Below are positions 1 through 35,929 of a stretch of 64,000 bases of DNA, in pieces. The stretch spans positions 35,624 to 99,623 of the forward strand of contig JBFLVH010000008.1 in assembly GCA_040758575.1 (NCBI GenBank), in the 5' to 3' direction. The notes under the pieces are model-generated. The model searched no databases. It was given only the letters and a program-made list of their open reading frames with translations, and was not told where the DNA came from. Both the position numbers and the translations under genes were made by a program. Positions within the stretch are counted from its first letter, which is position 1, and each line of letters starts with the position of its first letter. The DNA comes from Bacteroidota bacterium (GTDB lineage Bacteria; Bacteroidota; Bacteroidia; B-17B0; Aurantibacillaceae).

Positions 1-98
1 CTATTTAATTTGTTTAAAGATGGGCCCTCTTTTATTGAAAAGTCAGATGATTCAATAAAAAATATTTATAGTTGGAAATAATGATTTAGGTATAAAAA

Positions 99-243
99 AT
101 TGAAAAATTTATACATACCACAATTCTCATGTATAAAAACTATACATATCACCACTCTCATGTATAAAAAATTGAAAAATTTATACATATCATTATTCTC
201 ATGTATAAAAATCTCAAAAATTTATACATATAACATCTTCAAA
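99..243. repeat. Tandem array of AT-rich palindromic units (TTTATACAT-N12-ATGTATAAA), about 72-bp period: three full hairpins plus one half-site
   Basis: Arms at 108-116/129-137, 141-147/160-166 and 180-188/201-209, with a half-site at 221-229. The 12-nt loops are related (accacaattctc, atcaccactctc, atcattattctc). ATTGAAAAATTTATACATA recurs at 99 and 171. Lies just 3' of pepF. Confidence 0.7.
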
Positions 244-245
244 TT

Positions 246-1934
246 TTACATCAAACATTGTTCATACTCTTTCCATACAAAGTCAATTAGTTCCTTAATA
301 TAACTTTCAGAAAAATTAAATTGAATACCTGCTGTTTGATAAATTTCAGGAATGGACTTTGTATTGCCCAAAGAAAGTGCATTTTTGTATGCACTAATGG
401 CTTGGGTTTTATTGTGTTTGTAGTTTTTCCAAATTGCAATGGCTCCCAATTGTGCAAAACCATATTCAATGTAATAAAACGGCACTTCGTAAATATGCAA
501 TTGTGCTTGCCATCTTATCTTCAAAAAACGCTCTATTCCTTTGTGAGAAATATTTTTAGGGGATAAGTGCTTTATTGTATTCAGCCAATAATCATATCTT
601 TCATTGATAGAATGAGAAGGGTTCTCGTATAGCAAATGTTGAAATTTATCAATAGCGGCTATCCATGGCAAAGCATCTATAACGCTTTCTAACTGCTGTT
701 GTTTGGCTCTCTTCAAGTCATTTTCATTTTTGAAAAACACATCCCAATAATCCATACTTATCAATTCCATACTCATACTGGCTAATTCTGCTACTTCACT
801 GGGCGGACTTTTGAAATCTAAAACAGGATAGTGGTTATTCAAAAAGAAATGCACAGCGTGTCCTGTTTCGTGCATAAGTGTTACTAAATCTCTATGTAAT
901 CCAACAGCATTCATAAAAATAAATGGCACACCGCTTTTATACAATGGATATTGATAACCACCCGGTGCCTTGCCAATTCTGGAACTCAAATCCAATCTTT
1001 TAAGACGATGCATTTCTCTTAAACAATCTGCAAAAAAAACATCTATTTGCTCAAAACAACGAATACTTTTCTCAACAAACTCTTCTTCTGTTTCAAATGG
1101 TTTTAAGGGCTCTAAACCATACATATCTACCTGTGTATCCCAAGTATAATAATCGTTTTCAAGTGCTAACTTTTTTTGACGAATTCGGTGAATTTCTTCT
1201 ACAACAGGCACAACAGCTTTTTCAACCGATGTGTGAAACTGTTTGCAATCTTCCACAGAATAATCATATCTGCCCAATGCGGTATGCATATAATCACGAT
1301 AGTTGGCAAATCCTGCATTTTGTGCTACCTGATGGCGTAATGCAATTAACTCATTCAAAAGTTGATTTAATTGATCTTCATCTTGTTGTCTTCTTTCATT
1401 GATGAGATAATATACTTCTTTTCTGATATTACGATTTTGATTTTTCAAATAAACACTGGCTTGTTGTAAGGTCAATGTTTTCCCATCGTATTGAATACTT
1501 TGTTGTCCTGTTATTTCAGCATATTGTTGTTGAAGTTCTTGTATTTTTGTAAGCAGGGGCACATTCTCTTCTCTGAATAATTCAATATCCTTTTTAATAT
1601 TCTTTTTAAATACTGAGAAAACATCTTCTGAAAGTGCATTAAAATAAGGTGATTCAAAAGTTTTAGTATTAATTTTATTTTGAACAATTTGTAAGTGCGG
1701 CTCAATTTCTGTTACGAACTGAATATATTTTTGTTTGAGCACTTCGTCATTTGTATGGCAGGTCATATTTATGTATCTCCATCCGCCTTCTTCTGAAATT
1801 ACAGATAATAACTCATTCCAATCATATATAAATTGCAAATAGTCGTTAAACTCATTAAAATTTCTATTCAATAATTCGTCAAATATTGGTTGTAAATCTG
1901 CCCATTTATCAAATTTAATATCCTGATATTTCAT
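246..1934 (-). CDS. pepF: M3-family oligoendopeptidase F
   Basis: 562-aa ORF with zinc motif HETGHAVH (HExxH). Length and sequence resemble M3B PepF. Confidence 0.85.
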   Translation of the reverse strand: MKYQDIKFDKWADLQPIFDELLNRNFNEFNDYLQFIYDWNELLSVISEEGGWRYINMTCHTNDEVLKQKYIQFVTEIEPHLQIVQNKINTKTFESPYFNALSEDVFSVFKKNIKKDIELFREENVPLLTKIQELQQQYAEITGQQSIQYDGKTLTLQQASVYLKNQNRNIRKEVYYLINERRQQDEDQLNQLLNELIALRHQVAQNAGFANYRDYMHTALGRYDYSVEDCKQFHTSVEKAVVPVVEEIHRIRQKKLALENDYYTWDTQVDMYGLEPLKPFETEEEFVEKSIRCFEQIDVFFADCLREMHRLKRLDLSSRIGKAPGGYQYPLYKSGVPFIFMNAVGLHRDLVTLMHETGHAVHFFLNNHYPVLDFKSPPSEVAELASMSMELISMDYWDVFFKNENDLKRAKQQQLESVIDALPWIAAIDKFQHLLYENPSHSINERYDYWLNTIKHLSPKNISHKGIERFLKIRWQAQLHIYEVPFYYIEYGFAQLGAIAIWKNYKHNKTQAISAYKNALSLGNTKSIPEIYQTAGIQFNFSESYIKELIDFVWKEYEQCLM

Positions 1935-2028
1935 AAAAATTTTTTGCGAAATGTAGTAATTTATATCTTAAATGTTTTCAGTTTTGATATAAGTGTAATC
2001 AGTATATTTAGGCACAGAATTATTAGAT

Positions 2029-2925
2029 ATGTCCATCAGTGTAAAAAATGTTACTAAAATTTATGGTAAGCAAAAAGCCCTGGATAATGTTTCATTTGAA
2101 ATAAAAAATGGAGAAATTGTAGGTTTTTTAGGACCTAATGGTGCGGGCAAAAGCACTATGATGAAAATTATTACAGGATACATTCCCCCAAGTAGTGGAA
2201 TGGTAGAAGTAAATGGTTTAAACATATTTGAACATTCTCTTGAAATAAAAAAACAAATCGGTTATTTACCTGAACAAAATCCTTTGTATTACGAAATGTA
2301 TGTAAAAGAATTTTTAGAGTTTATTGCTAAATTATATGGCATAAAAAGTGTTCATCAGAGAGTGAAAGAAATGATTGATATATGCGGTTTGGAAATTGAA
2401 CAACACAAAAAAATAGGTACACTTTCAAAAGGTTATAAGCAAAGAGTAGGTTTAGCGCAGGCACTTATCCATAACCCATCTGTACTAATATTAGATGAAC
2501 CCACATCTGGTTTAGACCCCAATCAATTAGAAGAAATCCGACAATTAATTAAAACACTTGGAAAGGATAAAACAGTAATGTTAAGCACTCATATTATGCA
2601 GGAAGTAGAAGCCGTGTGTAATAAAGTCATTATTATACATCGTGGTAAAATTGTGGCTTCTGATGATATTCAAAATATTAGAAAATCGGCGGGTACAAAA
2701 AAAATTATTGTTGAATTCTCCATAGCATTGAACAAACAACATTTTGCGGAATTATCGCTTCAAAGCATTGAAAAAATTTCTGATACACAATGGGCTATTG
2801 AAACAACTGATGAAGATATACCTAAAAAATTGATGAACATTGCCATTAAAAATAATTGCAGTATTGTTAGTTTGAATAAGTCAGAAATGAAATTAGAAGA
2901 AGTATTTAAATCTTTAACTCAATGA
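2029..2925 (+). CDS. gldA: Gliding-motility ABC transporter ATP-binding protein GldA
   Basis: Walker A GPNGAGKST, signature LSKGYKQR, Walker B LILDEPTSGLD. The N-terminus MSISVKNVTKIYGKQKAL resembles Flavobacterium GldA as I recall it. gldF-gldG lie downstream on the same strand. Confidence 0.8.
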   Translation: MSISVKNVTKIYGKQKALDNVSFEIKNGEIVGFLGPNGAGKSTMMKIITGYIPPSSGMVEVNGLNIFEHSLEIKKQIGYLPEQNPLYYEMYVKEFLEFIAKLYGIKSVHQRVKEMIDICGLEIEQHKKIGTLSKGYKQRVGLAQALIHNPSVLILDEPTSGLDPNQLEEIRQLIKTLGKDKTVMLSTHIMQEVEAVCNKVIIIHRGKIVASDDIQNIRKSAGTKKIIVEFSIALNKQHFAELSLQSIEKISDTQWAIETTDEDIPKKLMNIAIKNNCSIVSLNKSEMKLEEVFKSLTQ

Positions 2926-3015
2926 TGTGCGGTTATAAAAAATTGATTGTTTTTTTTCAATATTGTCCAAAATGGGTTAATTATTTTTTAAGACAATTTT
3001 ATTTTGAGTGGTTTA

Positions 3016-3050
3016 ATGTTTGTCTTTTGCCTGCGGCAAAAGACAAACAT
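3016..3050 (+). terminator. Perfect 16-bp hairpin downstream of gldA
   Basis: ATGTTTGTCTTTTGCC-tgc-GGCAAAAGACAAACAT. It is GC-enriched relative to its surroundings and has no U-tract of its own. Confidence 0.55.
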
Positions 3051-3058
3051 CTTAAAGA

Positions 3059-3115
3059 CCTCTCCCCTTTAATTCCCCTCTCCTTAAAAAGGAGAGGGGC
3101 TGGGGGTGAGGTTTT
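3059..3115 (+). terminator. Nested GC-rich hairpin followed by a T-run (rho-independent terminator candidate for gldA)
   Basis: Inner stem CCCCTCTCC-ttaaaaa-GGAGAGGGG. Outer stem CCTCTCCCC...GGGGTGAGG has one mismatch. TTTTT follows. Confidence 0.6.
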
Positions 3116-3140
3116 TCCGTGGAAAATATTGGTTTCTTTT

Positions 3141-4001
3141 ATGTTCCTATTGTTTTCTCTTTGTCTATCATTTGCTCAAAATAAAATGGATTCACTTGGA
3201 AGAAAACAAGGATACTGGAAAGTATATTATCCTAATTCCAAACACCTTGAATATGAAGGGTTTTTTAAAGATGATAAACCGCAAGGATTGTTCAAGTATT
3301 ATTATGAACACGATACTATTAAAGCCAAAGTTAATTTTATCAAAGAGGGTAAATATGCTTATGCTACCCTCTATCATATGAATGGAAAAATAATGGCAAA
3401 GGGTAAATATCTGGAACAAAAAAAAGATTCTGTGTGGGAATTTTACAATCAATTAGGACAATTACTCAACAGAGAAAATTATCTGCAAGGTCAAAGACAT
3501 GGATTAAGTATTACTTATTATGACTCAGGAAAAGTATATCAAAAAACACAATATATCTTAAATAAAAAACACGGGTATTTTATTGAATACTTCCCTGATG
3601 GAAAAATAAAAGGAATGGGCTATTACAAAAACGATTTGGCAGAAGGATATTTTGTTTATTATGCGCCTAACGGCACACGAGTTGGACTTATAACTTATCA
3701 AAATGGCGTGAGAAACGGACCTACTGTAATTAAAGATTTAGATGGAAAAATAACTGAAAAAACGCTTTACAAAAACGGTTATCCGGTTAAAAATGAAAAA
3801 GAATCAGAAATGTTTTTTCAACAACATCCTGAAATGCTTCATAATGAATTCGGTCTTGAAAAAGATATAATTAAACTTTTTGAAAACAGAAATGAAAAAT
3901 CATTTTTTATGGATAACATTACTACTGAAAACAAAAATGAACTTCTAAAAAATTTACAGCAAAAAAAATCTAATAATCCTAAACAAAAGATTAAAAAATA
4001 G
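3141..4001 (+). CDS. MORN-variant repeat protein (YwqK-like), secreted
   Basis: Repeated G(Y/L)xKxYYxNGxxxxEGxF-type units (GYWKVYYPNSKHLEYEGFF, GLFKYYYEHDT, HGLSITYYDSGKV, HGYFIEYFPDGKI, EGYFVYYAPNG). ATG at 3141 gives the signal-like MFLLFSLCLSFAQ. The ORF-track start at 2922 runs through the two hairpins. Confidence 0.7.
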   Translation: MFLLFSLCLSFAQNKMDSLGRKQGYWKVYYPNSKHLEYEGFFKDDKPQGLFKYYYEHDTIKAKVNFIKEGKYAYATLYHMNGKIMAKGKYLEQKKDSVWEFYNQLGQLLNRENYLQGQRHGLSITYYDSGKVYQKTQYILNKKHGYFIEYFPDGKIKGMGYYKNDLAEGYFVYYAPNGTRVGLITYQNGVRNGPTVIKDLDGKITEKTLYKNGYPVKNEKESEMFFQQHPEMLHNEFGLEKDIIKLFENRNEKSFFMDNITTENKNELLKNLQQKKSNNPKQKIKK

Positions 4002-4004
4002 ATT

Positions 4005-4028
4005 TAAATGATTCTATAAAATCATTTA
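4005..4028. terminator. AT-rich 9-bp hairpin between convergent genes
   Basis: TAAATGATT-ctataa-AATCATTTA, between the MORN gene stop (4001) and the peptidase stop (4071). Confidence 0.45.
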
Positions 4029-4070
4029 GAAATTTATTAAGATATTTTAAAAGGAAGTTTTTTACTTTAA

Positions 4071-5207
4071 TTAAAATTTACCAAGCTCATCATTTATTAG
4101 TTTAAACATTTCTGTTTCAGTTATTTTGAACTCATAATATATTTGCTTTAAACAACTATCTGCATTATCTTTAAAATCTTTTAATCTCAAAAGTCCTTTA
4201 ATACCAAATTTTTTGTATATTACATTTACTATTAATGCTGAAGACACATAAGCATCAGTAGAATTTGGTTTTTCATTAATTGTTTTGAATAAATTTTTAT
4301 TAAATGGATAGTATTTACTTTTAAATACTTTAAGTAAGTTAGAATAAGATTGATTTAAACTTCCTCCAAAAAATGTTGCTATACCTTCACTTAAAAAATG
4401 CCCTGTTTTTATTTTATTATCAACAACAAGATGCACTAATTCATGTGGATAATAAAATATTCCTTTTCCGGAAATTATCATTTTAGCGTCATAAAATGTC
4501 TTTCCAGTAGTATATCCTGCGTAAAAAAAATTAAATCCTAATAAATACCCTAAACTCTCTGGACTTTTACAAACCACAAAATTCACAGAATCTATTTTTG
4601 CTGAAAAAATATAAATCATACTATCAAGAAAATTTTTTGCTTTTTCCATTTCTAATTCATTTGGGTTTAAAGATGGTTCAATAATGTATTTTATTTTGTC
4701 ATAATTATATTTTTTCCAATTTGCTATTCTTTCTTCAAAAAGATTAAAAAGATACAAATTATTGTTTTGTTTTAAAATTCCAATTTCAACAATTGCAAAT
4801 GGGTTGGAGTTTAAAGATGCATTAGTGTCATTTGGCGTAAAATTAAAATGACAAAATGAGGTAGTTATATAGCAAGTATCACCTTGAGAACTAATAGAAA
4901 GAATATATGGTTTAAAATAATTTAGTAAAGATTTTTGGGGATACTGAAATAGAGATGAATAAAACAATGAGTAGTCATTCCCAAATTGTTTTATTTGAGA
5001 TGGTAGCCAATATTTTTTTCTAATAGAATCATTTTCTTCATACAAAAAATTTATCCAAAAATTCAAATACTCTTTACATGAAGATTGATTTAATGAAATA
5101 CTTGCTAAAGAATGTAAATAAAATTTAGGGGATGAGTTCTCTTTTTCTTGTGAAAAAACAAAACTTAAATAAAAACAAAATAAAATAGAAAATAATATAT
5201 GTTTCAT
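4071..5207 (-). CDS. Secreted HExxH metallopeptidase (peptidase MA-like), last gene of the lanthipeptide operon
   Basis: Signal peptide MKHILFSILFCFYLSFVFSQ. HELVH followed 15 residues later by SEGIATFFGG (gluzincin-like HExxH...E, resembling Peptidase_MA_2). Its start overlaps the lanM stop as ATGA (5204-5207). Confidence 0.6.
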   Translation of the reverse strand: MKHILFSILFCFYLSFVFSQEKENSSPKFYLHSLASISLNQSSCKEYLNFWINFLYEENDSIRKKYWLPSQIKQFGNDYSLFYSSLFQYPQKSLLNYFKPYILSISSQGDTCYITTSFCHFNFTPNDTNASLNSNPFAIVEIGILKQNNNLYLFNLFEERIANWKKYNYDKIKYIIEPSLNPNELEMEKAKNFLDSMIYIFSAKIDSVNFVVCKSPESLGYLLGFNFFYAGYTTGKTFYDAKMIISGKGIFYYPHELVHLVVDNKIKTGHFLSEGIATFFGGSLNQSYSNLLKVFKSKYYPFNKNLFKTINEKPNSTDAYVSSALIVNVIYKKFGIKGLLRLKDFKDNADSCLKQIYYEFKITETEMFKLINDELGKF

Positions 5208-8089
5208 AAAGATTTGTAATCTCTTGGTTTATTTGATGTAGGAGGATGGAGCAGTAAAATAGAGGGCATATTATAATCAAATAATAATTTTAATATATTA
5301 TATGCAATACCAGAATTACCCAAAAACAAACCATTCAATGAAAACTTTCCATTTTTAAATCCAGTTTTCCAATTTAATTCACCAGTAGTATCCTTTTTAT
5401 AAATTTCAAACACAATTTTATTTTTTGTTAAAGTTATTAAATTGTGATTTTTAGTTTTATATCCAATCGCCATTAACGTTTCTAAATTTCCTAACATTCC
5501 ATGACATAAACAATGTGAATGTTCGAATCCTTCTTTAAGAATAGTCCCTTTTATTTTATTCCAGTTAATATCAAAGTTAATAGGCAGAAGATTTTCAATT
5601 TCTAAATAAGCATTTAATATACCAGATGAACCATGGCACCAAGAAGGGGATGTTATTAAAAAATCAGAATATCGTAAATCTCTCCAACCTTGATAACTCT
5701 CAAAAAAATAATTGTTATTATATTTTATAATACTATTTAAAAACATAATATCTTTTTTTGTGTAACCAAATAATTCATAATATTTTGATAGAGCATATAA
5801 AATACCTGCATTACCATGTGCAAAACCAACTAAATATTTAAATTTATTGCATTCCCATGTTATGCCATTGGATGTAATAATTGCTGATTTTAGTATTTTT
5901 TGATATATTTTTTGAATAGGTAGTATTAAAGAATTTAGTTTTTCATTTTTATAGTAGTCAATAAGTAAAATCAATAAACCAGAACATCCATTTAATACAT
6001 CTATAAATGTATCAAATCTTATGTTATTTTTAACATATGGAACTAATTTCTGTTCAAATAATTCATTTAAATTTGTATTTTCAATATCGCCAATTATTTT
6101 ACTATAATGCCAATAAAAATAAAGGGTTGAAAATGGAAAATGGTAAGGTGAAAAAAGATAATATGATTTTGAGGGATTAAAATTTTTAAAAGTAAAAAGA
6201 GATTTATTCATAATAGATTGTGCGACCCTTTTGTATTTTGATTCTTTTGTAAATTTATATAAGTATAAATAAAACAATCCCAATCCATCTAATCCGTCGT
6301 AAATTCCAAAATTTTTCGGAGCAAACTCCCATTGACCAACTCTTCCTACATTAATATCTATCCATTGATATGATTTACCTACACGTATCCTATCATTTAG
6401 TACCTTTTCTGCTATTTGAATAATGTGTTTTTTTATTTTTTTCGTATCATAATTATAAGGTAATGAATTATTGTTTAAACTTTTCTTTTCAAGAATCTTA
6501 TTGTCTTTACTTTGTTCAAATTGATAAAAACACGAAATAGATTTTTCAATATATGAAATTTGATCTTTAATTACAGTATCAGATAATTTGTTTATTCTAT
6601 TAACCATCGAATGAAACCCAGACTTTTTTAAAATATAATACCTGTTGTTTTTATCAAAAATAAATTTTTTAAATGGTTTTGTATAAAATATAGGATAATC
6701 TAAATTTTGTAATTCTTTTATTTCAGATTCAATTAATTCCTTTGGGAAACAATCTTTATCATATGAACTATACAAATAATTCAAAATTTTTATTCTTTTA
6801 GAATAACTTTTTAAATTATCTGGATGTAAACTCTCTTTAAGAATTATATTATAGACATTTGTATGTCTCATTAACACTCTAGTACTAATATTATATTGAT
6901 TAATTAAGCTTTTAACAATGGAAATTAACCACTTTTTATTAATCATAATGAATCTACAACAACTATCAAAACCGTCGCAAATTTTCGAGCACATAACATC
7001 TATGGCTATCTTTTTATCAGATTTACTTGGAATGTGATAAGAATATTTAGGAAAGCTTTGAATTAAGTATTCTATCTTTTTGTTTCTACTAAAAAATAAT
7101 TTTGTGTGTGAAGAATGAATTGCTTCAAGGGATATACCACCAAAATTTAATCCTACATTATCTATTTTATTTGGTGTCCAAAAAGGAAGAAGTCCAGTGC
7201 CAATAACAGATTCTTTATAGTAATTTTCAATTAAAGGATAAGTATCGTTAATTGATGATTTTATTATGGGTTTAAATAAACATTCAGTGTCAATAAAAAC
7301 AGGTATTGTTTTCTTTACAATTATATTATCAGCAATTATATCAGATATTCCTAAAGAATAAAATAGAGCAAGGTATTTTCCAATATTCTCGTAATATAAC
7401 TTAACCCCCTTCTTTGAATTATTAGGTACATAATTAACAAACTCTTCCCAATAATAATTACATTTTATTAGCCTCTTTGGAAATATAAAAGGCAAATTAT
7501 AACCTTTTTCATTAATTTTTCTTATAATACATTCAAAAACTAAACTACTTTCATAAGGTTTTACTTTATATGCAATTTTTGAACCAGATTGAAATATTAT
7601 CACTGTATGTGTTTGACCATTGTTGTGAAAATCACCAATTGGCCATTGAATGGAGATGGGCACACTATCTATACCAAAATAATTCTGGATATCTTTTTTA
7701 TCATTTAAAAATCTGTCAATAAGATCAGAAAAATATTTGACATAATTTTGAATTGAAATATCAAGAATTCTTTTGAGTTGAGGATATTTACTAAAACAAG
7801 AATAAAATAATTCTTTTTTTCTAATAAACAAAATATTCTTGCGACCATCTTTATAAGTATCACTTAAGCTATTATATGTGTAAAGTATGGGAAATTTAAT
7901 TAATTCAAAAATTTGTATTGATATTGCTTCTGAAATAGAATTTATAAACAAAATGAGATTTTCATTATAGTTAATACTTTTTTGAAGTAATATAAATACA
8001 CTATTTTTAATTTCATTAAAATCATTATGACTAATTTCTTCATCAAATTCCTTTCTTAAATATTCATCACTTGAAAAATAAAATTTCAT
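5204..8089 (-). CDS. lanM: Class II lanthipeptide synthetase (LanM): N-terminal kinase-like dehydratase plus C-terminal LanC-like cyclase
   Basis: 961 aa. Motifs: GDFHNNGQTHTVIIFQSGSKIAYKVKP, DIIADN...FIDTE, SVIGTGLLP, RVLMRHTNVY. Cyclase motifs: YDGLDGLGLF, GFAHGNAG (H758), SWCHG (C818), CLCHG (C862/H863). Confidence 0.9.
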   Translation of the reverse strand: MKFYFSSDEYLRKEFDEEISHNDFNEIKNSVFILLQKSINYNENLILFINSISEAISIQIFELIKFPILYTYNSLSDTYKDGRKNILFIRKKELFYSCFSKYPQLKRILDISIQNYVKYFSDLIDRFLNDKKDIQNYFGIDSVPISIQWPIGDFHNNGQTHTVIIFQSGSKIAYKVKPYESSLVFECIIRKINEKGYNLPFIFPKRLIKCNYYWEEFVNYVPNNSKKGVKLYYENIGKYLALFYSLGISDIIADNIIVKKTIPVFIDTECLFKPIIKSSINDTYPLIENYYKESVIGTGLLPFWTPNKIDNVGLNFGGISLEAIHSSHTKLFFSRNKKIEYLIQSFPKYSYHIPSKSDKKIAIDVMCSKICDGFDSCCRFIMINKKWLISIVKSLINQYNISTRVLMRHTNVYNIILKESLHPDNLKSYSKRIKILNYLYSSYDKDCFPKELIESEIKELQNLDYPIFYTKPFKKFIFDKNNRYYILKKSGFHSMVNRINKLSDTVIKDQISYIEKSISCFYQFEQSKDNKILEKKSLNNNSLPYNYDTKKIKKHIIQIAEKVLNDRIRVGKSYQWIDINVGRVGQWEFAPKNFGIYDGLDGLGLFYLYLYKFTKESKYKRVAQSIMNKSLFTFKNFNPSKSYYLFSPYHFPFSTLYFYWHYSKIIGDIENTNLNELFEQKLVPYVKNNIRFDTFIDVLNGCSGLLILLIDYYKNEKLNSLILPIQKIYQKILKSAIITSNGITWECNKFKYLVGFAHGNAGILYALSKYYELFGYTKKDIMFLNSIIKYNNNYFFESYQGWRDLRYSDFLITSPSWCHGSSGILNAYLEIENLLPINFDINWNKIKGTILKEGFEHSHCLCHGMLGNLETLMAIGYKTKNHNLITLTKNKIVFEIYKKDTTGELNWKTGFKNGKFSLNGLFLGNSGIAYNILKLLFDYNMPSILLLHPPTSNKPRDYKSL

Positions 8090-8146
8090 CTCGCACTAAC
8101 TTCATTCATACAACCAGAAAATCCGGTCTAATTATTATCAAATTTA

Positions 8147-8386
8147 CTATTCTAAACCTATTGCAAACTCATATCTATCTACAACAAGTTTGAAACCAGA
8201 TGGAGATTCAGAAATATCAGCCTTTTTTATTTGAACTTTAGGTACATCACTAAAACAACAATGTACAACCGTGCCATCACACCCGCTTCCACTACCAGTT
8301 CCAGATGACCCTAATGCTCCATTGTATCTTTCAACTAGGAATTCTAACTCCTCTTTTCTCATTTTAATTACTTCAGTTAAAGCCAT
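8147..8386 (-). CDS. lanA: Putative lanthipeptide precursor (LanA) with a central Cys/Ser/Thr core and a C-terminal leader-like extension
   Basis: 79-aa ORF 57 nt upstream of lanM on the same strand. Core is SSGTGSGSGCDGTVVHCCFS (3 Cys, 7 Ser/Thr). Leader motif FLVERYNGALG is echoed near the C-terminus as LVVDRYEFAIG. Confidence 0.7.
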   Translation of the reverse strand: MALTEVIKMRKEELEFLVERYNGALGSSGTGSGSGCDGTVVHCCFSDVPKVQIKKADISESPSGFKLVVDRYEFAIGLE

Positions 8387-8661
8387 AAATTTAATTTTTG
8401 ATGTTATTATTGGCTGTAAAAATAAGTAAAAAGATATTTATTTACAAATAAAAAATCACTTTTTTCCTAAATATTTTTAAATAGTTTTTTAAGTTGCTGT
8501 ATTTCAGTAATTTAAATTTTTAAAATTATTTATAATTTAAAGTATTAAAAATATACCTCCTCCTCTTTTTTGTTCTTTTTAAACCTCATATTCCTATTTC
8601 TAAACTTACCTATCCTTTAATATCATTAATGTTACTATTTAGCTTATAATTAAACCTCAAT

Positions 8662-8738
8662 GACGCAAAGATTTTTATGACAAGAATTGCACGAATTATT
8701 TTTCAATTTTTAGTATTCATTTTTCACATCTTTGCGCC
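8662..8738. repeat. Inverted repeat GACGCAAAGAT ... ATCTTTGCGCC (10 of 11 matched) with 55-nt spacer
   Basis: Arms at 8662-8672 and 8728-8738. A third CGCAAAG copy lies at 8829-8835. Located in the 585-nt non-coding gap. Confidence 0.4.
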
Positions 8739-8860
8739 TTAGCATTAAAAAATTTAATAGTGATGAATAGTAACTTATTAATTAAATTTTTCAATTCCAC
8801 TTAAATACTAATTTTACACTATATTCGCCGCAAAGTATAATAGTAAGTTTTTAGTTTTTA

Positions 8861-8925
8861 ATGCTGACGCTAGCGGTCAGCATGCTGATATTTTGCGTAG
8901 CAAAATCGTCAGCATTTTGATTTTA
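8861..8925 (+). terminator. Two adjacent GC-rich hairpins, the second followed by a T-run, 47 nt upstream of gldF
   Basis: Hairpin A: ATGCTGAC-gctagcg-GTCAGCAT (8861-8883). Hairpin B: ATGCTGA-t-ATTTTGC-gta-GCAAAAT-cg-TCAGCAT (8882-8915), then TTTTGATTTT. The U-tract exists only on the + strand. Confidence 0.5.
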
Positions 8926-8971
8926 GAATTTGAAATGAAAAAAACTAAACACTGAAAAAACTCAACACTAA

Positions 8972-9712
8972 ATGAAAGCATTATTTATCAAAGAAATACG
9001 AAGTTACTTAAATTCTCTGACAGGGTTTTTAGTGATACTTGTATTTTTAATTGTAACTGGTTTATTCTTGTGGATAATACCTAATGAAGCAACGGGCACT
9101 AACATTCTTGAAAATGGTTTTGCATCATTAGAAAGTTTGTTTTCCCTGGCTCCTTGGGTGTTTTTAATTTTAATTCCTGCGATTAGTATGAAATTATTTG
9201 CAGAAGAAAACAAAGCGGGCACATTAGAACTTTTACTCACTAAGCCATTAACCGAAATGCAAATTGTTTTATCTAAATACTTTGCAGGTTTTGTAATCAT
9301 CGTATTTTCACTACTACCAACCTTAATTTATTACTACACTGTTTATCAACTTGGCTTGCCAAAAGGTAATTTAGACACAGGCGGCACCTGGGGTTCATAT
9401 ATTGGGCTTTTCTTTTTAGCATCTGTATTTTTGTCTATTGGATTGTTTACTTCTGTTATCACAGATAATCAAGTGATTGCATTTATTTTTGGACTTATTA
9501 TGTGTTATTTATTTTACAATGGATTTGAATATCTGGCTACTTTCTTTTCTAATGGCTCTGTTGCACTTTTTATTTCTTCATTAGGAATTAACTATCATTA
9601 TTATAGTATGAGTAGAGGTGTTATTGATTCAAGAGATGTGCTCTATTTTTTAACTGTCATAACAATTTTTCTATTGCTCACCAGGTTAATTTTACAAAGT
9701 AGAAAATGGTAA
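8972..9712 (+). CDS. gldF: Gliding-motility ABC transporter permease GldF
   Basis: 246-aa ABC-2 type multi-TM protein. N-terminus MKALFIKEIRSYLNSLTGFLVILVFL is GldF-like. Overlaps gldG by 7 nt. Confidence 0.8.
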   Translation: MKALFIKEIRSYLNSLTGFLVILVFLIVTGLFLWIIPNEATGTNILENGFASLESLFSLAPWVFLILIPAISMKLFAEENKAGTLELLLTKPLTEMQIVLSKYFAGFVIIVFSLLPTLIYYYTVYQLGLPKGNLDTGGTWGSYIGLFFLASVFLSIGLFTSVITDNQVIAFIFGLIMCYLFYNGFEYLATFFSNGSVALFISSLGINYHYYSMSRGVIDSRDVLYFLTVITIFLLLTRLILQSRKW

Positions 9713-11409
9713 ATCAAATGCAAAACATTAAATATTCATCAAAGAAAAAAGATATAGGAAATTTTATCGCTTCCGTTATTGCCTTATTAATTATTAATTT
9801 TATTTTGAGTTTTTATTTTTTTAGATGGGACTTGACTGCTGAAAAAAGATATACTCTTTCTCCTTTCACAAAAGAATTTTTGAAAAATATTGATGATATT
9901 GTTTATTTTAAAATTTATTTAAGTGGCGACTTACCACCTGAATTTAATAAATTAAAAAAAGAAGTAAAAGAAATGCTGGATGAAATGCGAATCATTAACG
10001 ATAACATTCAGTATGAATTTGTTGATATTAATAGCGTTGGAAATAAAGAAGATATTAGAAATCTTGAAAAACAATTGTATGATAAAGGCATTGTGCCCGA
10101 ACAGGTAATAGAAAAAAAACAAAATAAAACATCAGAAAGTTTAGTTTGGCCTGGCGCACTTGTGTCTTACAAAGGAAAAGAAACTGTATGGCAAATTTTT
10201 TCAAGACAACTTGGTTATACTCCACAAGAAAACATTAATCACGCACTAAACGAAATTGAATATGGCATATGCAAAAGTATTCACAAACTCAAAAGAAAAA
10301 AGCGTCCTGAAATATCCATAGTTGAAGGGCACAAAGAATTAGACACTCTTCGTTTATATGACCTTATTCGTACTTTGTCAGAAGAATACAATATATCAAG
10401 AATCAATATCAATCATAAATTATATGCACTAAAGAATTTAGACGCTATCATTATTGCAAAACCTGATACACTCATTGATGAAAAAGATAAATTCATCATT
10501 GACCAATTTATAATGAAAGGTGGTAAAGTGCTATGGATGTTAGACCCTGTAAAAATTAATATGGATTCCTTTCGCCTGAAGGGATATTCTCTAGCGCTGA
10601 ACAATGAAACCAATTTAGAAGATATGCTATTTAGATATGGAGTACGACTAAACCCCGATTTAATCCAGGATTTACAATGTGCTGCAATACCTGTAAATAT
10701 TGGCTTTTCCAAAGGACAACCCAATTTTAAATTATTCCCCTGGATATTCTATCCTTTGATTATGCCTACTTCCAATCATCCTATTGTCAAAAATATGGAT
10801 TTGATTAAAACCGAATTCGTTAGCACCATAGATACATTAAGCACATCAGGTATTAAAAAAACCATATTGCTTACATCTTCTAAAAACTCAAGAGTAGCCC
10901 CAGTGCCATTCAGGGTATCGCTGGCTATCACGCAGTTCAAATTAAAAGAAAGTGCATTCAATCAAGGACCTAAACCAATTGCAGTTTTGTTAGAAGGAAC
11001 ATTTAAATCTTTATACGCCAACCGAATACCAACTATAATTATGGAAGACAGCACCATTCAGTTCAAAGAAGTTAGCGTTCCTAACAAAATGATTGTTATT
11101 TCAGATGGAGATATTGCCAAAAACGACATCAACAGAAGCACTGGTGTAATATATCCATTAGGTTACGACAAATATACTAATCAAACTTTTGCTAACAAAC
11201 AATTTATAGTTAATTGCATCAATTATCTATTAGATGAAACAGGACTGATGCAACTTCGTTCCCGTGAAGTAAAATTAAGATTATTAGACCAAAAGAAAAT
11301 AGCACTTCAAAAAACTAAATGGCAAATTTACAATGTGCTCTTACCACCTGTGATAATTAGTATTCTGGTTATTTTACAATATTATTGGAGAAAAAGAAAA
11401 TATACTTGA
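9706..11409 (+). CDS. gldG: Gliding-motility ABC transporter accessory protein GldG
   Basis: 567 aa with N- and C-terminal TM helices and the RWDLTAEKRYTLSP motif typical of GldG. Coupled to gldF. Confidence 0.8.
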   Translation: MVNQMQNIKYSSKKKDIGNFIASVIALLIINFILSFYFFRWDLTAEKRYTLSPFTKEFLKNIDDIVYFKIYLSGDLPPEFNKLKKEVKEMLDEMRIINDNIQYEFVDINSVGNKEDIRNLEKQLYDKGIVPEQVIEKKQNKTSESLVWPGALVSYKGKETVWQIFSRQLGYTPQENINHALNEIEYGICKSIHKLKRKKRPEISIVEGHKELDTLRLYDLIRTLSEEYNISRININHKLYALKNLDAIIIAKPDTLIDEKDKFIIDQFIMKGGKVLWMLDPVKINMDSFRLKGYSLALNNETNLEDMLFRYGVRLNPDLIQDLQCAAIPVNIGFSKGQPNFKLFPWIFYPLIMPTSNHPIVKNMDLIKTEFVSTIDTLSTSGIKKTILLTSSKNSRVAPVPFRVSLAITQFKLKESAFNQGPKPIAVLLEGTFKSLYANRIPTIIMEDSTIQFKEVSVPNKMIVISDGDIAKNDINRSTGVIYPLGYDKYTNQTFANKQFIVNCINYLLDETGLMQLRSREVKLRLLDQKKIALQKTKWQIYNVLLPPVIISILVILQYYWRKRKYT

Positions 11410-11434
11410 TATGGAATAAAATCAAGGAAAACCT

Positions 11435-11449
11435 TCCGCCAGAGGCGGA
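11435..11449 (+). terminator. Short GC hairpin after gldG (weak terminator candidate)
   Basis: TCCGCC-aga-GGCGGA. No clear U-tract. Confidence 0.25.
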
Positions 11450-11480
11450 TGAGTATTCAGACAATAGAAACCACATCTAA

Positions 11481-12266
11481 ATGCAATACAAATATCTAAT
11501 ACATCCTCTTAAAGAAATTATTTATCAGGCAGGACAAAGAATTCTGGAAGCATCTAAAAATTTTGATAAATCAAAAATCATTCATAAGAACACTTATGAT
11601 TTAGTGAGTTATGTTGATATTGAAACTGAAAGATTTTTAATTGAAGAATTATCTAAATTATTTCCTGATGCTGGATTTATTGCAGAAGAATCACATTTAC
11701 AATCCAACAAAGATTGGAATTGGATTATAGACCCATTAGATGGAACAACTAATTTTACAAGGCAATTACCATCTTATGCCATTAGCGTAGCATTAGCCCA
11801 CAAAACCGAAATTCTAATAGGAGTGGTTTACAATATTCCTCTGAATGAAATGTTCTGGGCGGTCAAAAACAATGGAGCTTTTCTGAATGATAAGACAATA
11901 AAGGTATCCAATAATGATTTTTCAAATTCTTTATTCGTTACTGGTTTTTCTGTTTCAAGATTTGATAAAGTAGAGATACATTTAAATGTAGTTAAACAAA
12001 TTATTACGCAAACATTAGGGATTAGAAGATTGGGGGCAGCCGCAGTAGATTTGTGTTATGTAGCATGTGGAAGATTAGACGGCTTTTTTGAATGGTATTT
12101 AAATCCATGGGATGTTGCAGCAGGTAGTTTAATTGCTATTGAAGCTGGTGCTCTTGTCAGTGATTTTTCTGGTCAAAACAATTATTTATTTGGAAAAGAA
12201 ATTGTATCTGCCCAACCCAAAGTTTATCAACAACTACTTCAAATGATTCAAAATTCAACAATATGA
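11481..12266 (+). CDS. Inositol monophosphatase family protein (SuhB-like)
   Basis: Motifs WIIDPLDGTTNF and WDVAAG. 261 aa. Confidence 0.8.
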   Translation: MQYKYLIHPLKEIIYQAGQRILEASKNFDKSKIIHKNTYDLVSYVDIETERFLIEELSKLFPDAGFIAEESHLQSNKDWNWIIDPLDGTTNFTRQLPSYAISVALAHKTEILIGVVYNIPLNEMFWAVKNNGAFLNDKTIKVSNNDFSNSLFVTGFSVSRFDKVEIHLNVVKQIITQTLGIRRLGAAAVDLCYVACGRLDGFFEWYLNPWDVAAGSLIAIEAGALVSDFSGQNNYLFGKEIVSAQPKVYQQLLQMIQNSTI

Positions 12267-13495
12267 ACTTCAAACCCAAAATAATTAACGACCCTGTTTA
12301 TGGTTTTGTGAGTATAAATCATCCAATCATTTTAGAAATCATCAATCATCCGTATTTTCAGAGATTGAGAAGAATTAAACAGTTGGGGCTAACTAATCTT
12401 GTTTATCCTGGTGCATTACATACCCGATTTCATCACGCAATAGGCGCCATGCATTTAATGCAACAGGCCATTCAAACACTTAAAACAAAAGGTATTCGCA
12501 TCAATGATAAAGAAGAACAAGCATCTTTAATAGCCATATTACTTCACGACATTGGACACGGACCATTTTCACATGCCCTTGAAAATACTATTGTTTCAAA
12601 TGTTTCGCACGAAGATATTTCTTCAATACTAATGCACGATTTGAATAAACAAATGAATGGCAAGTTATCTCTGGCAATAAAAATTTTTGAAGACACTTAT
12701 GAAAGAAAATTTTTTCATCAATTAGTAAGCAGTCAGTTGGATACAGATAGATTGGATTATTTATTGAGAGATAGCTTCTTTACAGGTGTAAGTGAAGGTG
12801 TTATTGGAACAGATAGAATTATTAAAATGCTTACAGTTGTCAATGATAAATTAGTAGTAGAACAAAAAGGCATTTATAGTATTGAAAAATTTTTGATTGC
12901 AAGAAGATTAATGTATTGGCAGGTATATTTGCACAAAACAGTATTATCTGCAGAAAACATGCTGGTTAAAATTCTTACACGAGCAAAAGAGTTGGTAAGA
13001 AAATATAATTACGATTTGTTTGCTACACCTGCATTAAAATTTTTTCTACAAAATAATATTGAAAAAGATAGATTTTACAAAGATAAGATGGTCATTGAAA
13101 ATTTTATCAATTTAGATGATAATGATATTATTGCATCTATCAAAGTGTGGACAAAGTGTGATGATTTTATTTTATCTGAATTGAGCAAAAAATTTATCTA
13201 CAGACAATTATTTAAAACAATATTACAAAAAGACGAAATACCACAAAAAGTGATAACATCAATAGAAAAAAGAGTATTAAAGAAATACCATCATATTTCA
13301 ACACAAGAAATAAATTATTTTGTAATCAATGGTAGTGTGAATAATTCTGCTTATGTAAAAAACAAATTTAAAATTGAAATATTTGATGGTAAAAAATTAA
13401 TTGACATAGCCCGTGCAAGTGATAATTTAAATATAGAAGCATTAAGTGGCGAAGTGAAAAAATATTTTTTAAGTTATGATAGAAATATTGAATGA
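12263..13495 (+). CDS. HD-domain phosphohydrolase (COG1078 / SAMHD1-like family)
   Basis: RFHHAIGAMHL, LLHDIGHGPFSH and DTDRLDYLLRDS. ATGA overlap with the upstream gene. Confidence 0.8.
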   Translation: MNFKPKIINDPVYGFVSINHPIILEIINHPYFQRLRRIKQLGLTNLVYPGALHTRFHHAIGAMHLMQQAIQTLKTKGIRINDKEEQASLIAILLHDIGHGPFSHALENTIVSNVSHEDISSILMHDLNKQMNGKLSLAIKIFEDTYERKFFHQLVSSQLDTDRLDYLLRDSFFTGVSEGVIGTDRIIKMLTVVNDKLVVEQKGIYSIEKFLIARRLMYWQVYLHKTVLSAENMLVKILTRAKELVRKYNYDLFATPALKFFLQNNIEKDRFYKDKMVIENFINLDDNDIIASIKVWTKCDDFILSELSKKFIYRQLFKTILQKDEIPQKVITSIEKRVLKKYHHISTQEINYFVINGSVNNSAYVKNKFKIEIFDGKKLIDIARASDNLNIEALSGEVKKYFLSYDRNIE

Positions 13496-13551
13496 TAATA
13501 ATAATTCTACATTCTTCTATGTTCATTAAAATTAACCTTCTCACCTTCTAA

Positions 13552-14559
13552 ATGAAAAAAGTAAATTGCTTAATTGTAGGTAGTGGACTTGCAGGTGTAA
13601 CAATAGCTTGGAAACTATATCAAAAAAATATTTCTTTTCACATCATCAGTAACCCACATTTATCCACTTCATCTATCATTGCACCTGGTATTATCAATCC
13701 CATTGTTTTCAAAAGAATGATCCCTTCATGGAACATCACAGAACTTTTAAGTATATCACAATCATTTTACAAAAATATTGAACAAACACTCCAACAAAAA
13801 ATATTTGAAAATATTCAAATAGCCCATTGTTTGCATTCAGATGATGATGAAAAATTGTGGAAAGAAAAACAATTTTTTTATCCTCAATTTTTAGGTGAAA
13901 TAACAACATTAAATGATTTGCCAATTAAAAATATCAAACAAAATTTCAAATGTGGTATGGTGCTGAATGCAGCAAGATTAAAAGTTTCAGAATACATTTA
14001 TTATTCACTAAATTACTTCAAAAACATTAATGCCTATTCTGAAGAAAAATTTTATCATGAAAATTTATTAATCAATGAAAAAATATTAGAGTATAATCAA
14101 ATCATTGCTGAAAAAATTATTTTTTGTGAAGGTTATCACTTGCAAAGCAATCCTTTTTTTCAACACATTTCACTTAAACCTGCAAAAGGTGAGTTAGTTG
14201 AAATTTCTACACCACATCCAATAATGCCTGAAAACATTGTGCTTCATTATCATCTCAACATCATACCTAATAATACAAACAAATACTTAATTGGCTCAAA
14301 TTATGAATGGCAAAACATTGATGAACAAGCAACACAAAACATAAAGGAAAAATTTCTATCTGTTTTTGATAGTTTATTTGATGTTTCTTATGAAGTTATT
14401 GGACATTATGCAGGCATTCGTCCTGCTTCATTAGACAGAAGACCTATTATACAACAGCATCCCAAATTTTCAAATTTATTTACTATCAATGGCTTTGGCA
14501 CAAAAGGCGTTATGCTTGCTCCGTATGCCGCAGAAGAATTGTTGAAGTTATTGATCTAA
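13552..14559 (+). CDS. FAD-dependent oxidoreductase (DAO family)
   Basis: N-terminal dinucleotide-binding motif CLIVGSGLAGVT; C-terminal GFGTKGVMLAP. 335 aa. Confidence 0.7.
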   Translation: MKKVNCLIVGSGLAGVTIAWKLYQKNISFHIISNPHLSTSSIIAPGIINPIVFKRMIPSWNITELLSISQSFYKNIEQTLQQKIFENIQIAHCLHSDDDEKLWKEKQFFYPQFLGEITTLNDLPIKNIKQNFKCGMVLNAARLKVSEYIYYSLNYFKNINAYSEEKFYHENLLINEKILEYNQIIAEKIIFCEGYHLQSNPFFQHISLKPAKGELVEISTPHPIMPENIVLHYHLNIIPNNTNKYLIGSNYEWQNIDEQATQNIKEKFLSVFDSLFDVSYEVIGHYAGIRPASLDRRPIIQQHPKFSNLFTINGFGTKGVMLAPYAAEELLKLLI

Positions 14560-33409: not shown

Positions 33410-35929
33410 TTATTCAATGATTTTATTTTGAATTAGTTGGTCAATGTAATATCTTTTATTATTGTAGAGTGCGATTACAAATGCATCTTTCACACCTGCT
33501 TTGATAATTTTTTTATTATACTCTAATGCTTCATTTAAAGTGCTAAATTTACCTGTGTGTAAAATATATTTTCCATTTTCTAAACGATAAGTTTGAATGG
33601 AAGATATTTTTTTAATATTATTATATCCTGTATAGGTAGATGTGTTAGAAACTCCTATTTGTACAGAAAAAAAGAGATTTTCTTTAGAGACACTTCCGTA
33701 TTTTTCAGAGTAATTAAATATTTTTTGTTGAAATGAATTTAATACAACGCCTGAAAAATCAATTGATTTAGAAGGAGTAGTAATTGAAGAAGAAGTTTGT
33801 TCTTTATGGGCTTGTAAATTTGAATTTTCTTTATGTTCAGCGGTTGTAGTGTTTATGGATTGATGTTCTTTTTGAATTTCTTTTGCTAATTGTTCATCTT
33901 TTTTCACATAAATACCCATTTTCACAAGGTCAGACAGATATACTCTTTTGCCTTTATATATGGCTAATACAAAGGCATCTTTTTGTCCTGCTTTAATAAC
34001 TTTAAGATTGTGTTGAAACGCTTCGTTTAATGTTTTAAAATCGCCACCAATAGTAAATCTTGTTAGTCCATCTTCTAACTGAATAGTTTCTACTTTTCCT
34101 AATCCTTTTAAGTGGTTGTAAGAATAATTTTTAGGATACTTGTATGCAGCAATTTGCACTTTAAATACAAGTCCTTCTACACTGATGTTTCCATAGTTTT
34201 TAGTGTATTCATAAGTTTCTTTTTGAACAGGATTAAGAGATGGTGTTGGCGAGGTAGGATTAGTTGTGCTTGTAATTGTATTGGTAATAACAGGTTCAGG
34301 GGTTTTAACAACAGGAGAGGACATTGTTTCAAATTGAAACAAGTGCATTTTTTCTTTGTAGGAATTTAAATCTTTTGTGCTTACAACAAATGATTCAGAA
34401 AAATTACTATCTAATTTACATTCAATTTTAAAGTCATAACCTGCGGGAAGATTGATGAGGTATTTGCCTTTTTCTTTTGTTTTAGTTTGATAATATATTT
34501 CTTCTTTCCCATCTCTGACAATATATGTAGTAATATTAACATTACTAATAGATTTTTTATCTTTGAAAACAGTACCATAAACTAACATATTGACGGGCTT
34601 GGAATCAAAATTGGTTTCAATGATGTAAATATCTTTCAATCCAATGCCATTAGGTCTTGCACTTGAATAGTAGGCATGTTCACCACTTGCAGATGTAACA
34701 AAATAAATATCATCAGCGGGTGTATTGATGGGGTAACCTACATTTTCAACTTGTTTGAATGTAGAATCTTTTAAATCCATTTTGGATACAAAAATATCGT
34801 AATCGCCCATGCTATTATGCCCTTTGGAACTAAAGTAAAGAGTAACGCCATCAGGATGAATAAAGGGCGCGTCTTCATCTAAAGGCGTGTTGATAGCACT
34901 TCCGAGGTTAGTAATATTTCCCCACGAGCTATCGGGTAACAAAGTGGCTTTGTAAATGTCTTTTCCGCCGTATCCACCAGGTCTTTCGCTTGAAAAATAG
35001 AGAGTTCTTCCATCGGCGGTAATAGAACAACTGCCTTCCCAGGAATATGAATTGACAAGTCCTTTTAGTTTTTGCGGAGGCGTAAATTCTTTGTTTCCAA
35101 AATAATAAGAAACATAAATATCGCCATGAGTGATACCATCATCTTTGTAGACAAACAACATCATTCCATCGGGAGAAAAAGCGATAGCAGCGTCGTGAGA
35201 GTTGGTGTTAAGAGTATCTATTGGTTGTGGTTCAGACCATTTATTAAGAATTTTTTCCGATATAAAAATATCTTCAAAGAAAATACCTTTTGGGTCGGGA
35301 AGCAAAGAGGCGTTTTGTCTTCCGCCTTTACTTTTTTCACCACGATAAGTAAAAATCATAGTGGCTTCATCGGTAGTAATTACAGGCACATACTCATCCC
35401 ATTCTGTGTTGATAGGAGCACCTAAATTGCTCACTTTTGCACGAGTAGGAGATGAGTATAAAACTTTTGCGTTTTGAATATAATTTTTAAGAAGTTCAGC
35501 ATTGGCTTTATCTTCGGGAGATAGTTTTTTTTGAGATAAAAATTGATTGACAAATTCTTCTGCTTTGTCAAATTGATAATTGTAATGGTAAGCACGAGCG
35601 AGGTCGTATTGAATCTTATCTATTTTGGGGTTGGCGGCATAACTCTCTTCTAATAAACGAAGAGCCAGGTCATATTTATCACTTCTTGTTAATGATAATT
35701 TACCCACAAAATATTTTAGATACACTTCATTAGGATGGTGATTATAGATGCTTTCCAGTATAGGATATGCTAATGCTGTATTCCCTTCATCATATAGCAA
35801 TAATGCTTCATTGAGAGAATCTACTTCTGTTTTTCTCCATTTTTTGGTTTTCATTGTTTGGGCTACAATGCCTGAAAACAAGAGTAATAATGCTATATTT
35901 AAAATGGCTTTTTTATGAAAAAAACTCAT
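33410..35929 (-). CDS. Secreted TPR - PD40 (TolB-like beta-propeller) - tandem SPOR-like domain protein
   Basis: 839 aa with a signal peptide. N-terminal TPR-like helices. Repeated PD40-like units (SPDGMMLFV, TADGRTLYFSS, HPDGVTLYFSS). Two related C-terminal modules (FKVQIAAYKYP...AFVLAIYKGKRVY and FSVQIGVSNTS...AFVIALYNNKRYY). Confidence 0.6.
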   Translation of the reverse strand: MSFFHKKAILNIALLLLFSGIVAQTMKTKKWRKTEVDSLNEALLLYDEGNTALAYPILESIYNHHPNEVYLKYFVGKLSLTRSDKYDLALRLLEESYAANPKIDKIQYDLARAYHYNYQFDKAEEFVNQFLSQKKLSPEDKANAELLKNYIQNAKVLYSSPTRAKVSNLGAPINTEWDEYVPVITTDEATMIFTYRGEKSKGGRQNASLLPDPKGIFFEDIFISEKILNKWSEPQPIDTLNTNSHDAAIAFSPDGMMLFVYKDDGITHGDIYVSYYFGNKEFTPPQKLKGLVNSYSWEGSCSITADGRTLYFSSERPGGYGGKDIYKATLLPDSSWGNITNLGSAINTPLDEDAPFIHPDGVTLYFSSKGHNSMGDYDIFVSKMDLKDSTFKQVENVGYPINTPADDIYFVTSASGEHAYYSSARPNGIGLKDIYIIETNFDSKPVNMLVYGTVFKDKKSISNVNITTYIVRDGKEEIYYQTKTKEKGKYLINLPAGYDFKIECKLDSNFSESFVVSTKDLNSYKEKMHLFQFETMSSPVVKTPEPVITNTITSTTNPTSPTPSLNPVQKETYEYTKNYGNISVEGLVFKVQIAAYKYPKNYSYNHLKGLGKVETIQLEDGLTRFTIGGDFKTLNEAFQHNLKVIKAGQKDAFVLAIYKGKRVYLSDLVKMGIYVKKDEQLAKEIQKEHQSINTTTAEHKENSNLQAHKEQTSSSITTPSKSIDFSGVVLNSFQQKIFNYSEKYGSVSKENLFFSVQIGVSNTSTYTGYNNIKKISSIQTYRLENGKYILHTGKFSTLNEALEYNKKIIKAGVKDAFVIALYNNKRYYIDQLIQNKIIE

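Follow-up and report, generated by a model that had tools for sequence, protein, structure and literature searches.

Within the 64,000-nt window analysed here (positions 35,624 to 99,623 of contig JBFLVH010000008.1 from Bacteroidota bacterium assembly GCA_040758575.1, hereafter G000; 45 contigs, 2.71 Mb, 31.6% GC), a small cassette of lanthipeptide (lan) genes, among them one for a class II synthetase (LanM), lies between the gliding-motility genes gldA and gldF-gldG. An earlier sequence-only reading had taken everything between these genes (2926-8971: a MORN-repeat gene, three lan genes and spacer DNA) as one segment inserted into an ancestral gldA-gldF-gldG operon, with the palindromes near its two edges as insertion scars or insulating terminators. 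We find that the order gldA-MORN-gldF-gldG is conserved in the genus and that three insertions, independent of each other and specific to this lineage, have very probably been added to it. The lan cassette (orf79, LanM and orf378 with AT-rich flanks) would have been gained horizontally between the MORN stop codon and a promoter-like box ahead of gldF, and in this species alone; a 174-nt miniature inverted-repeat transposable element (MITE) would have transposed, with a 9-bp target-site duplication (TSD), into the part of the MORN gene that codes for the signal peptide; and a leader segment of ~130 nt with a double hairpin and a T-run would have been inserted between the -7-like box and the gldF start codon. 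The lan locus is thus a genomic islet of the usual kind and not a mobile element framed by palindromes.

The clearest evidence for an insertion comes from the orthologous site in relatives, 40 of which were searched for gldA and gldF and had both placed. In six of seven congeners the two genes lie 944-1861 bp apart on the same strand, and the fetched loci all read gldA-MORN-gldF-gldG with zero lan genes and with MORN orthologues of 75-80% identity; the gap from MORN to gldF is 34-244 nt there against 4970 nt in G000. The most distant congener, G006, keeps gldA-MORN and has gldFG on another contig; it was tried as a polarity reference and set aside, being rearranged and uninformative for the junction. 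The six loci argue that the immediate ancestral state in the genus would have been gldA-MORN-gldF-gldG, with only the lan block extra. Synteny, which the earlier reading had proposed as a check, thus supports lan DNA inserted at a site that is empty in six congeners, but gldA is not directly followed by gldF-gldG at that site, and the inserted unit is not 2926-8971. A contiguous gldA-gldF-gldG ancestral operon does not hold up either: gldA is far from or unlinked to gldFG in other genera of the family and directly adjoins gldF in only 2 of 16 sampled other families (genomes G031 and G035). The gldF-gldG pair is conserved in class Flavobacteriia (PMC5682007). It is conserved here too, but in contrast to the Flavobacterium organization this genus links gldA to gldFG via a MORN gene in translational coupling with gldA.

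That MORN-repeat gene (2922-4001, + strand; a 359-aa open reading frame (ORF) with PF07661 MORN_2) appears to be native and genus-wide, not part of the insert. Orthologues stand directly after gldA in 7/7 congeners at 68-80% amino-acid identity, in five of these the two genes are between -4 and +1 nt apart, and the GC content at third codon positions (GC3) and codon usage of the gene are typical of G000. Its ATG at 2922 overlaps the gldA stop codon (ATGA, 2922-2925) and is most plausibly the real, ancestral start; the 359-aa frame reads through the MITE, and ATG 3141 is an alternative start beyond it.

Composition draws the same boundary. Positions 3751-8750 have 24.0% GC compared with a genome mean of 31.6%, which is below every 5-kb window of the genome (1-kb steps; minimum 24.8%, standard deviation 2.1%). 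Among 1644 long ORFs, the GC3 of lanM is 0.152 (0.7 percentile) and that of orf378 0.138 (0.2 percentile), whereas GC3 and codon usage of gldA, MORN, gldF and gldG are unremarkable. Because the lan genes are extreme in GC3 and MORN is normal, the compositional island starts after MORN. The GC dip that spot counts had hinted at is real and much stronger than they suggested, but the low-GC block has its left edge beyond the MORN gene and not at 2926.

The insert therefore consists of orf378-lanM-orf79 (4071-8386) plus AT-rich flanks, from ~4002 to at most 8817, and adds ~4.4-4.8 kb. Its left junction zone (4002-4070) is AT-rich, resembles neither the relatives' sequences nor the other cassette loci, and contains a weak hairpin (4005-4028) in a zone that folds no better than shuffled sequence (z = -1.2). 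On the other side, DNA similarity to metagenome contig L014 covers 4092-8407 and ends there, followed by AT-rich non-coding DNA (8387-8817) that we presume to be the lan promoter region; it has no match in congeners or elsewhere in G000, and the right junction lies in it between 8408 and 8817.

The cassette is patchily distributed, with the same module in unrelated genomic contexts. LanM occurs in 3/184 genomes of the family; the closest LanM proteins, at 46-54% identity, are on short metagenome contigs, and an exact-peptide scan of genome contigs found no close LanM relative. Matches to the module are four metagenome contigs (L011-L014) and two loci in one congener, G003, and the order 80-aa ORF, LanM, ~380-aa protein recurs on three of the metagenome contigs and at both G003 loci. 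The neighbours of the module vary, from a sigma-54 activator on one contig to tyrosine recombinases, DDE transposases and a DNA methylase in G003, where the LanM copies are only 41-42% identical to that of G000 and the cassettes are also AT-shifted relative to their own flanks. A homologue of orf378 is present in 9/400 genomes of the class, with all other copies at most 33% identical, and searches of plasmid and phage DNA gave no match. At the two G003 loci (L024:4976-5827 and 10051-10620; L023:16687-17535 and 11756-13003) the mobility-related genes are Phage_integrase/SAM_4 recombinases, DDE transposase fragments and an N6_N4 methylase-nuclease; at L024 a transposase fragment stands in place of orf378.

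The palindromes near the two ends of the interval do not mark the limits of the lan insertion and are not its scars; they are unrelated to each other and to it. On the left, the perfect palindrome at 3016-3050 (16-bp stem, 3-nt loop) and the nested GC hairpin at 3059-3115, with TTTTT directly 3', do exist; however, they do not sit in non-coding DNA at an edge but inside the 359-aa ORF, within a MITE (2958-3131, + strand) of 174 nt, the canonical length. It has 13-nt terminal inverted repeats (TIRs), CAATATTGTCCAA and GTGGAAAATATTG (family consensus CA(A/C)TATTGTCCAA / TTGGACAATA(T/G)TG from the copy alignment), and its 9-bp target duplication, GTTTTTTTT (2949-2957) and GTTTCTTTT (3132-3140), matches at 8/9 positions. 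At least 20 copies are found in G000, several of them exactly 174 nt long, against 0-1 per congener; they include C1:285792-285965, C14:17688-17861, C10:34578-34751, C3:192757-192942 and C4:93999-94171. The TSDs of other copies match at 8-9 of 9 positions (9/9 at C3:192757, C4:93999 and C14:17688). The element has no coding capacity of its own, folds strongly (-76 kcal/mol, z = -8) and has a modular interior, in which identical TIRs enclose different GC-hairpin cassettes. Together with one TSD copy it measures 183 nt, or 61 stop-free codons, and in-silico removal of both restores a MORN signal peptide reading MMCGYKKLIV(F/S)FMFLLFSLCLSFA followed by QNK. The left palindromes are thus best described as internal hairpins of a MITE inserted in frame in the signal-peptide coding part of MORN, where it may uncouple or alter MORN export. 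Since this element has its own TIRs and TSD and lies ~870 bp from the lan junction, the left 'bracket' represents an independent transposition.

In its length, short TIRs, 9-bp TSD, lack of coding capacity, copy number, lineage-specific expansion and strong internal secondary structure, the MITE resembles Correia, RUP and ERIC-type elements, and some copies of Correia and ERIC likewise insert in frame into genes; it differs from all of these in the different hairpin cassettes carried under the same TIRs. No autonomous partner transposase was identified, although no search was made for a transposase flanked by these TIRs. We found no paper on such MITEs in Flavobacteriia and no published description of this family. 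Elsewhere in G000, arrays of 3-5 tandem short GC-rich hairpins occur at C1:250250-250480, C7:149340-149540 and C2:226080-226300; the hairpins are of the CTGAC/GTCAG, CAGAC/GTCTG and TCCGA/TCGGA types, and some arrays end in a MITE TIR. In congener G004 a 720-nt mosaic of GC-rich hairpin repeats occupies the gldA-MORN junction (L003, reverse complement 1952-2671), which, next to the MITE in G000, suggests that this junction is a recurrent landing site.

On the right, the palindrome at 8882-8915 is also real, but it is imperfect, with one bulge, and is paired with a second hairpin (8861-8883) that directly precedes it. Both belong to an extra gldF leader (8830-8971, + strand), in which the hairpins are followed by TTTTGATTTT. 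The leader starts directly after a promoter-like box, ACTATATTCGCC (8818-8829, + strand), which we regard as native and as the right limit of the lan insertion. Bacteroidota promoters, such as those of Bacteroides and Flavobacterium, have the -7 consensus TAnnTTTG, and we take TATATTCG within the box to resemble this element. In six congeners (A/C/G)(C/T/A)TATATT(C/T)G... precedes the gldF ATG by 9-14 nt, compared with a box-to-ATG distance of 144 nt in G000; in one of them the box reads TATATTTG, the -7 consensus itself. Upstream of gldF no other -7-like motif occurs, and the 12-mer of the box is unique in G000 (its 10-mer occurs 9 times). Because the box is conserved and unique and the hairpins are downstream of it, they would lie outside the lan insert, on the gldF side.

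The double hairpin (-37.3 kcal/mol, z = -3.9) looks like an intrinsic terminator, although a terminator scan called only 8861-8883; the MITE and the right element both have a stem-loop followed by a T-run on the + strand. If it acts as one, gldFG transcripts would have to cross a terminator-like leader. The layout ATG...TTTTGC-N3-GCAAAA...CAT, described earlier as shared by the two palindromes, does not characterise a hairpin family. The family to which the left palindrome belongs (~13 copies, consensus GGGGTATCTTTTGCC-GCA-GGCAAAAGATACCCC) lacks the ATG/CAT ends, and the outer arms of the right palindrome are of the different CTGAC/GTCAG hairpin type. Counted genome-wide, the left element occurs at least 20 times, as the MITE, and the right element is unique. 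A metagenome contig of 2947 nt, L028 (FWWL01036290.1), is 100% identical to 8533-11479, the long gldF leader included, which indicates that the same strain is present in that metagenome sample.

The leader segment with its double hairpin is single-copy in G000 and absent from the congeners, and related CTGAC/GTCAG hairpin modules occur in other MITE copies and in the hairpin arrays of G000. Besides the same-strain contig L028, the 23-mer of the first hairpin, ATGCTGACGCTAGCGGTCAGCAT, is found exactly in only three other public contigs, two Bacteroidales metagenome-assembled genomes and one metagenome contig (L025:2840-2925, L026:6235-6310 and L029:1358-1440). In all three an intact tRNA gene (Gly, Val or Thr) stands next to a 3' tRNA fragment whose T-loop contains the 23-mer, and the second hairpin that follows keeps its base, SCTGAY...CGTCAGS, with a distal stem that is fully variable in sequence and always paired. 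The 23-mer was found in 0/400 sampled phylum genomes, allowing up to 2 mismatches. We see only a slim chance that the double hairpin is a copy of a rare, undescribed small Bacteroidota element; were this so, the pattern would fit a mobile mini-element or recombinase site, or a structured RNA module. Like REP/BIME elements, REPINs (RAYT Y1) and the IS200/IS605-derived PATEs, it is an adjacent hairpin pair without TIR or TSD, it repeats a 7-8-mer (ATGCTGA / TCAGCAT, four occurrences), and the genome has a Y1_Tnp gene; unlike them, it is single-copy in G000, remote from that gene and missing from the 400 phylum genomes. A link to RAYT/IS200 was considered and rejected, given that the single Y1_Tnp gene is on another contig and flanked by different hairpins. 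This gene (C29:7208-7552; IS200-like, 156 aa), the only one in G000, is followed downstream (6850-7150) by ~115-nt tandem repeats that duplicate its 3' end and contain the hairpins GATGCCGAAGGCATC and CGACCCATTCGGGGTCG. An Rfam scan of 1-14000 at E <= 1 matched neither the MITE nor the right element to a known RNA family. In the lan upstream spacer an inverted repeat, GACGCAAAGAT...ATCTTTGCGCC (8662-8738), is accompanied by a third CGCAAAG that starts at the end of the gldF box (8829-8835); together they could form an operator.

Several observations weigh against a horizontal gain of the lan cassette as told here. The lan junctions have no TSD, TIR, att site or recombinase that would give a mechanism or exact breakpoints, and a search for junction repeats returned only chance-level AT-rich 9-10-mers, such as ATTAAAAAAT at 3990 and 8744 (~0.3 expected). 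Breakpoints are bracketed only to 4002-4070 and 8408-8817, because intergenic DNA between these species is saturated; an attempt at finer breakpoints by alignment to congener spacers failed for the same reason. The only same-strain metagenome contig, L028, breaks within the AT-rich spacer. In a GldA+GldF+GldG tree G006 falls outside the others and G000 groups, without a resolved order, with the six species whose site is empty, and 0/200 bootstrap trees split these six from G000 by a branch; the within-genus tree is thus a near-polytomy, so that polarity rests mainly on composition and patchiness. The branching order would allow G000 to be early-branching and the cassette to be ancestral at the site, deleted in the other species, a history that would also agree with the missing insertion signature and with the two related cassettes elsewhere in G003. 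We nevertheless consider retention very unlikely. No other 5-kb stretch of the genome is as AT-rich as the cassette, the GC3 of lanM and orf378 is below the 1st percentile, and long residence should have let it drift towards host composition; G006, the outgroup within the genus, is without it; zero lan remnants are left in the six empty sites; the G003 LanM copies are only 41-42% identical and stand in mobile-element contexts; and no bootstrap tree separates the empty-site species from G000. Added to the tree, composition, patchiness and the differing module contexts favour a gain in the G000 lineage. With no mobility signature left, illegitimate or flank-mediated recombination is the route that we infer.

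The palindromes enter two further explanations. That 2926-8971, MORN and spacer included, is one unit that split gldA from gldF-gldG and has the palindromes as its scars or ends agrees with their position near both interval ends and with the gldA-gldF adjacency in G031 and G035, which are of other families; it is nonetheless extremely unlikely. MORN follows gldA with an overlapping stop codon in 7/7 congeners and has native composition, the left palindromes are inside a MITE with TIRs, a TSD and at least 20 other copies, the right palindrome is beyond the conserved gldF box, and the two come from different hairpin families. With the left pair being MITE interior and the right pair beyond the box, neither would mark a boundary of the lan insertion. 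A role for the hairpin elements as selected transcription insulators, in which the MITE would end gldA transcripts and the right pair would attenuate transcription out of the AT-rich foreign DNA or shield gldFG from it, is unlikely too, if less so than the single unit. Both elements combine strong hairpins with T-runs on the + strand (3059-3115 then TTTTT; 8882-8915 then TTTTGATTTT), and the right one is placed precisely between the gldF ATG and the single -7-like box upstream of it. However, the MITE is one of at least 20 near-identical, TSD-flanked copies, a sign of transposition and not of local selection, and it is inside an ORF rather than between transcription units, while a terminator after gldF's own promoter would lower gldFG expression instead of protecting it. 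Three independent insertions, of the lan cassette, the MITE and the leader segment, remain the reading that we prefer.

Family scans agree with the earlier gene identities and coordinates for gldA, gldF, gldG, LanM and the MORN_2 gene. Native gldA (2029-2925, + strand), the ATP-binding subunit of the gliding-motility ABC transporter, matches TIGR03522 with 425.6 bits (cut-off 402.6) and has orthologues of 74-82% identity in the 7 congeners. The permease/auxiliary subunit pair gldF (8972-9712, + strand; TIGR03518, 314.5 bits) and gldG (9706-11409, + strand; TIGR03521, 611.2 bits) is likewise native, with orthologues in all congeners. Two further points of the sequence-only reading stand, as the 585 nt at 8387-8971 hold no ORF >34 aa and a Pfam scan finds no integrase or transposase domain in the segment.

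The three lan genes, all on the - strand, form what we infer to be a self-contained divergent operon. LanM (5204-8089) is a class II lanthipeptide synthetase (TIGR03897, 529.7 bits; cut-off 304) with the N-terminal dehydratase domain PF13575 (DUF4135; 1e-70) and the C-terminal LanC-like cyclase domain PF05147 (1.6e-46). Directly upstream, orf79 (8147-8386; 79 aa), whose centre is rich in Ser, Thr and Cys, is a candidate precursor peptide (LanA). It matched no precursor family and its C-terminal part is long and Cys-poor, but it holds the same position relative to lanM in 6/6 other cassette copies at 66-75% identity, with the core motif GTGSGxxCDGTxVHCCF invariant among the copies. Between cassette copies orf79 is more conserved than LanM (41-54%), and the peptide of G000 is without a Cys that is invariant in five other copies (alignment A1; AGDCEF to VDRYEF). 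The third gene, orf378 (4071-5207), codes for a secreted HExxH(+E) protein, a candidate gluzincin-type peptidase, with a signal peptide and with H255-E256-x-x-H259 and E274 invariant across five homologues. Pfam and PDB sequence searches gave no match for it; its AlphaFold2 model has a pLDDT of 66, and the best PDB folds are M9, M1, M30 and M61 peptidases, all weak (E = 0.01-0.07). Neither a LanT-type ABC transporter with C39 peptidase nor immunity genes were found in 4002-8971 or on the homologous contigs.

The locus thereby shares with other class II lanthipeptide islets its absence from the relatives' orthologous site, deviant composition, patchy distribution and a LanM gene that adjoins a Ser/Thr/Cys-rich small ORF. 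It differs from typical islets in having no integrase, tRNA target, direct repeats or TSD, and from typical LanM clusters in consisting of three genes only, without a LanT/C39 transporter, immunity genes or a regulator, in an accessory gene for an uncharacterised secreted HExxH protein without a Pfam family, and in a putative precursor more conserved than its synthetase.

For annotation of the locus, the MORN start should be moved to the codon that overlaps gldA, the MITE recognized within the MORN signal peptide, and the long terminator-like leader of gldFG taken into account. The three-gene module of a 79-80-aa peptide, LanM and a family-less secreted HExxH protein is compact and could be tried in heterologous expression. 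Current knowledge is not overturned, given that a horizontally gained biosynthetic islet and a MITE are of known kinds. The locus shows a small biosynthetic cassette that would have entered a conserved motility-gene neighbourhood without recognizable mobility machinery, and palindromes near such inserts can be unrelated repeat elements.

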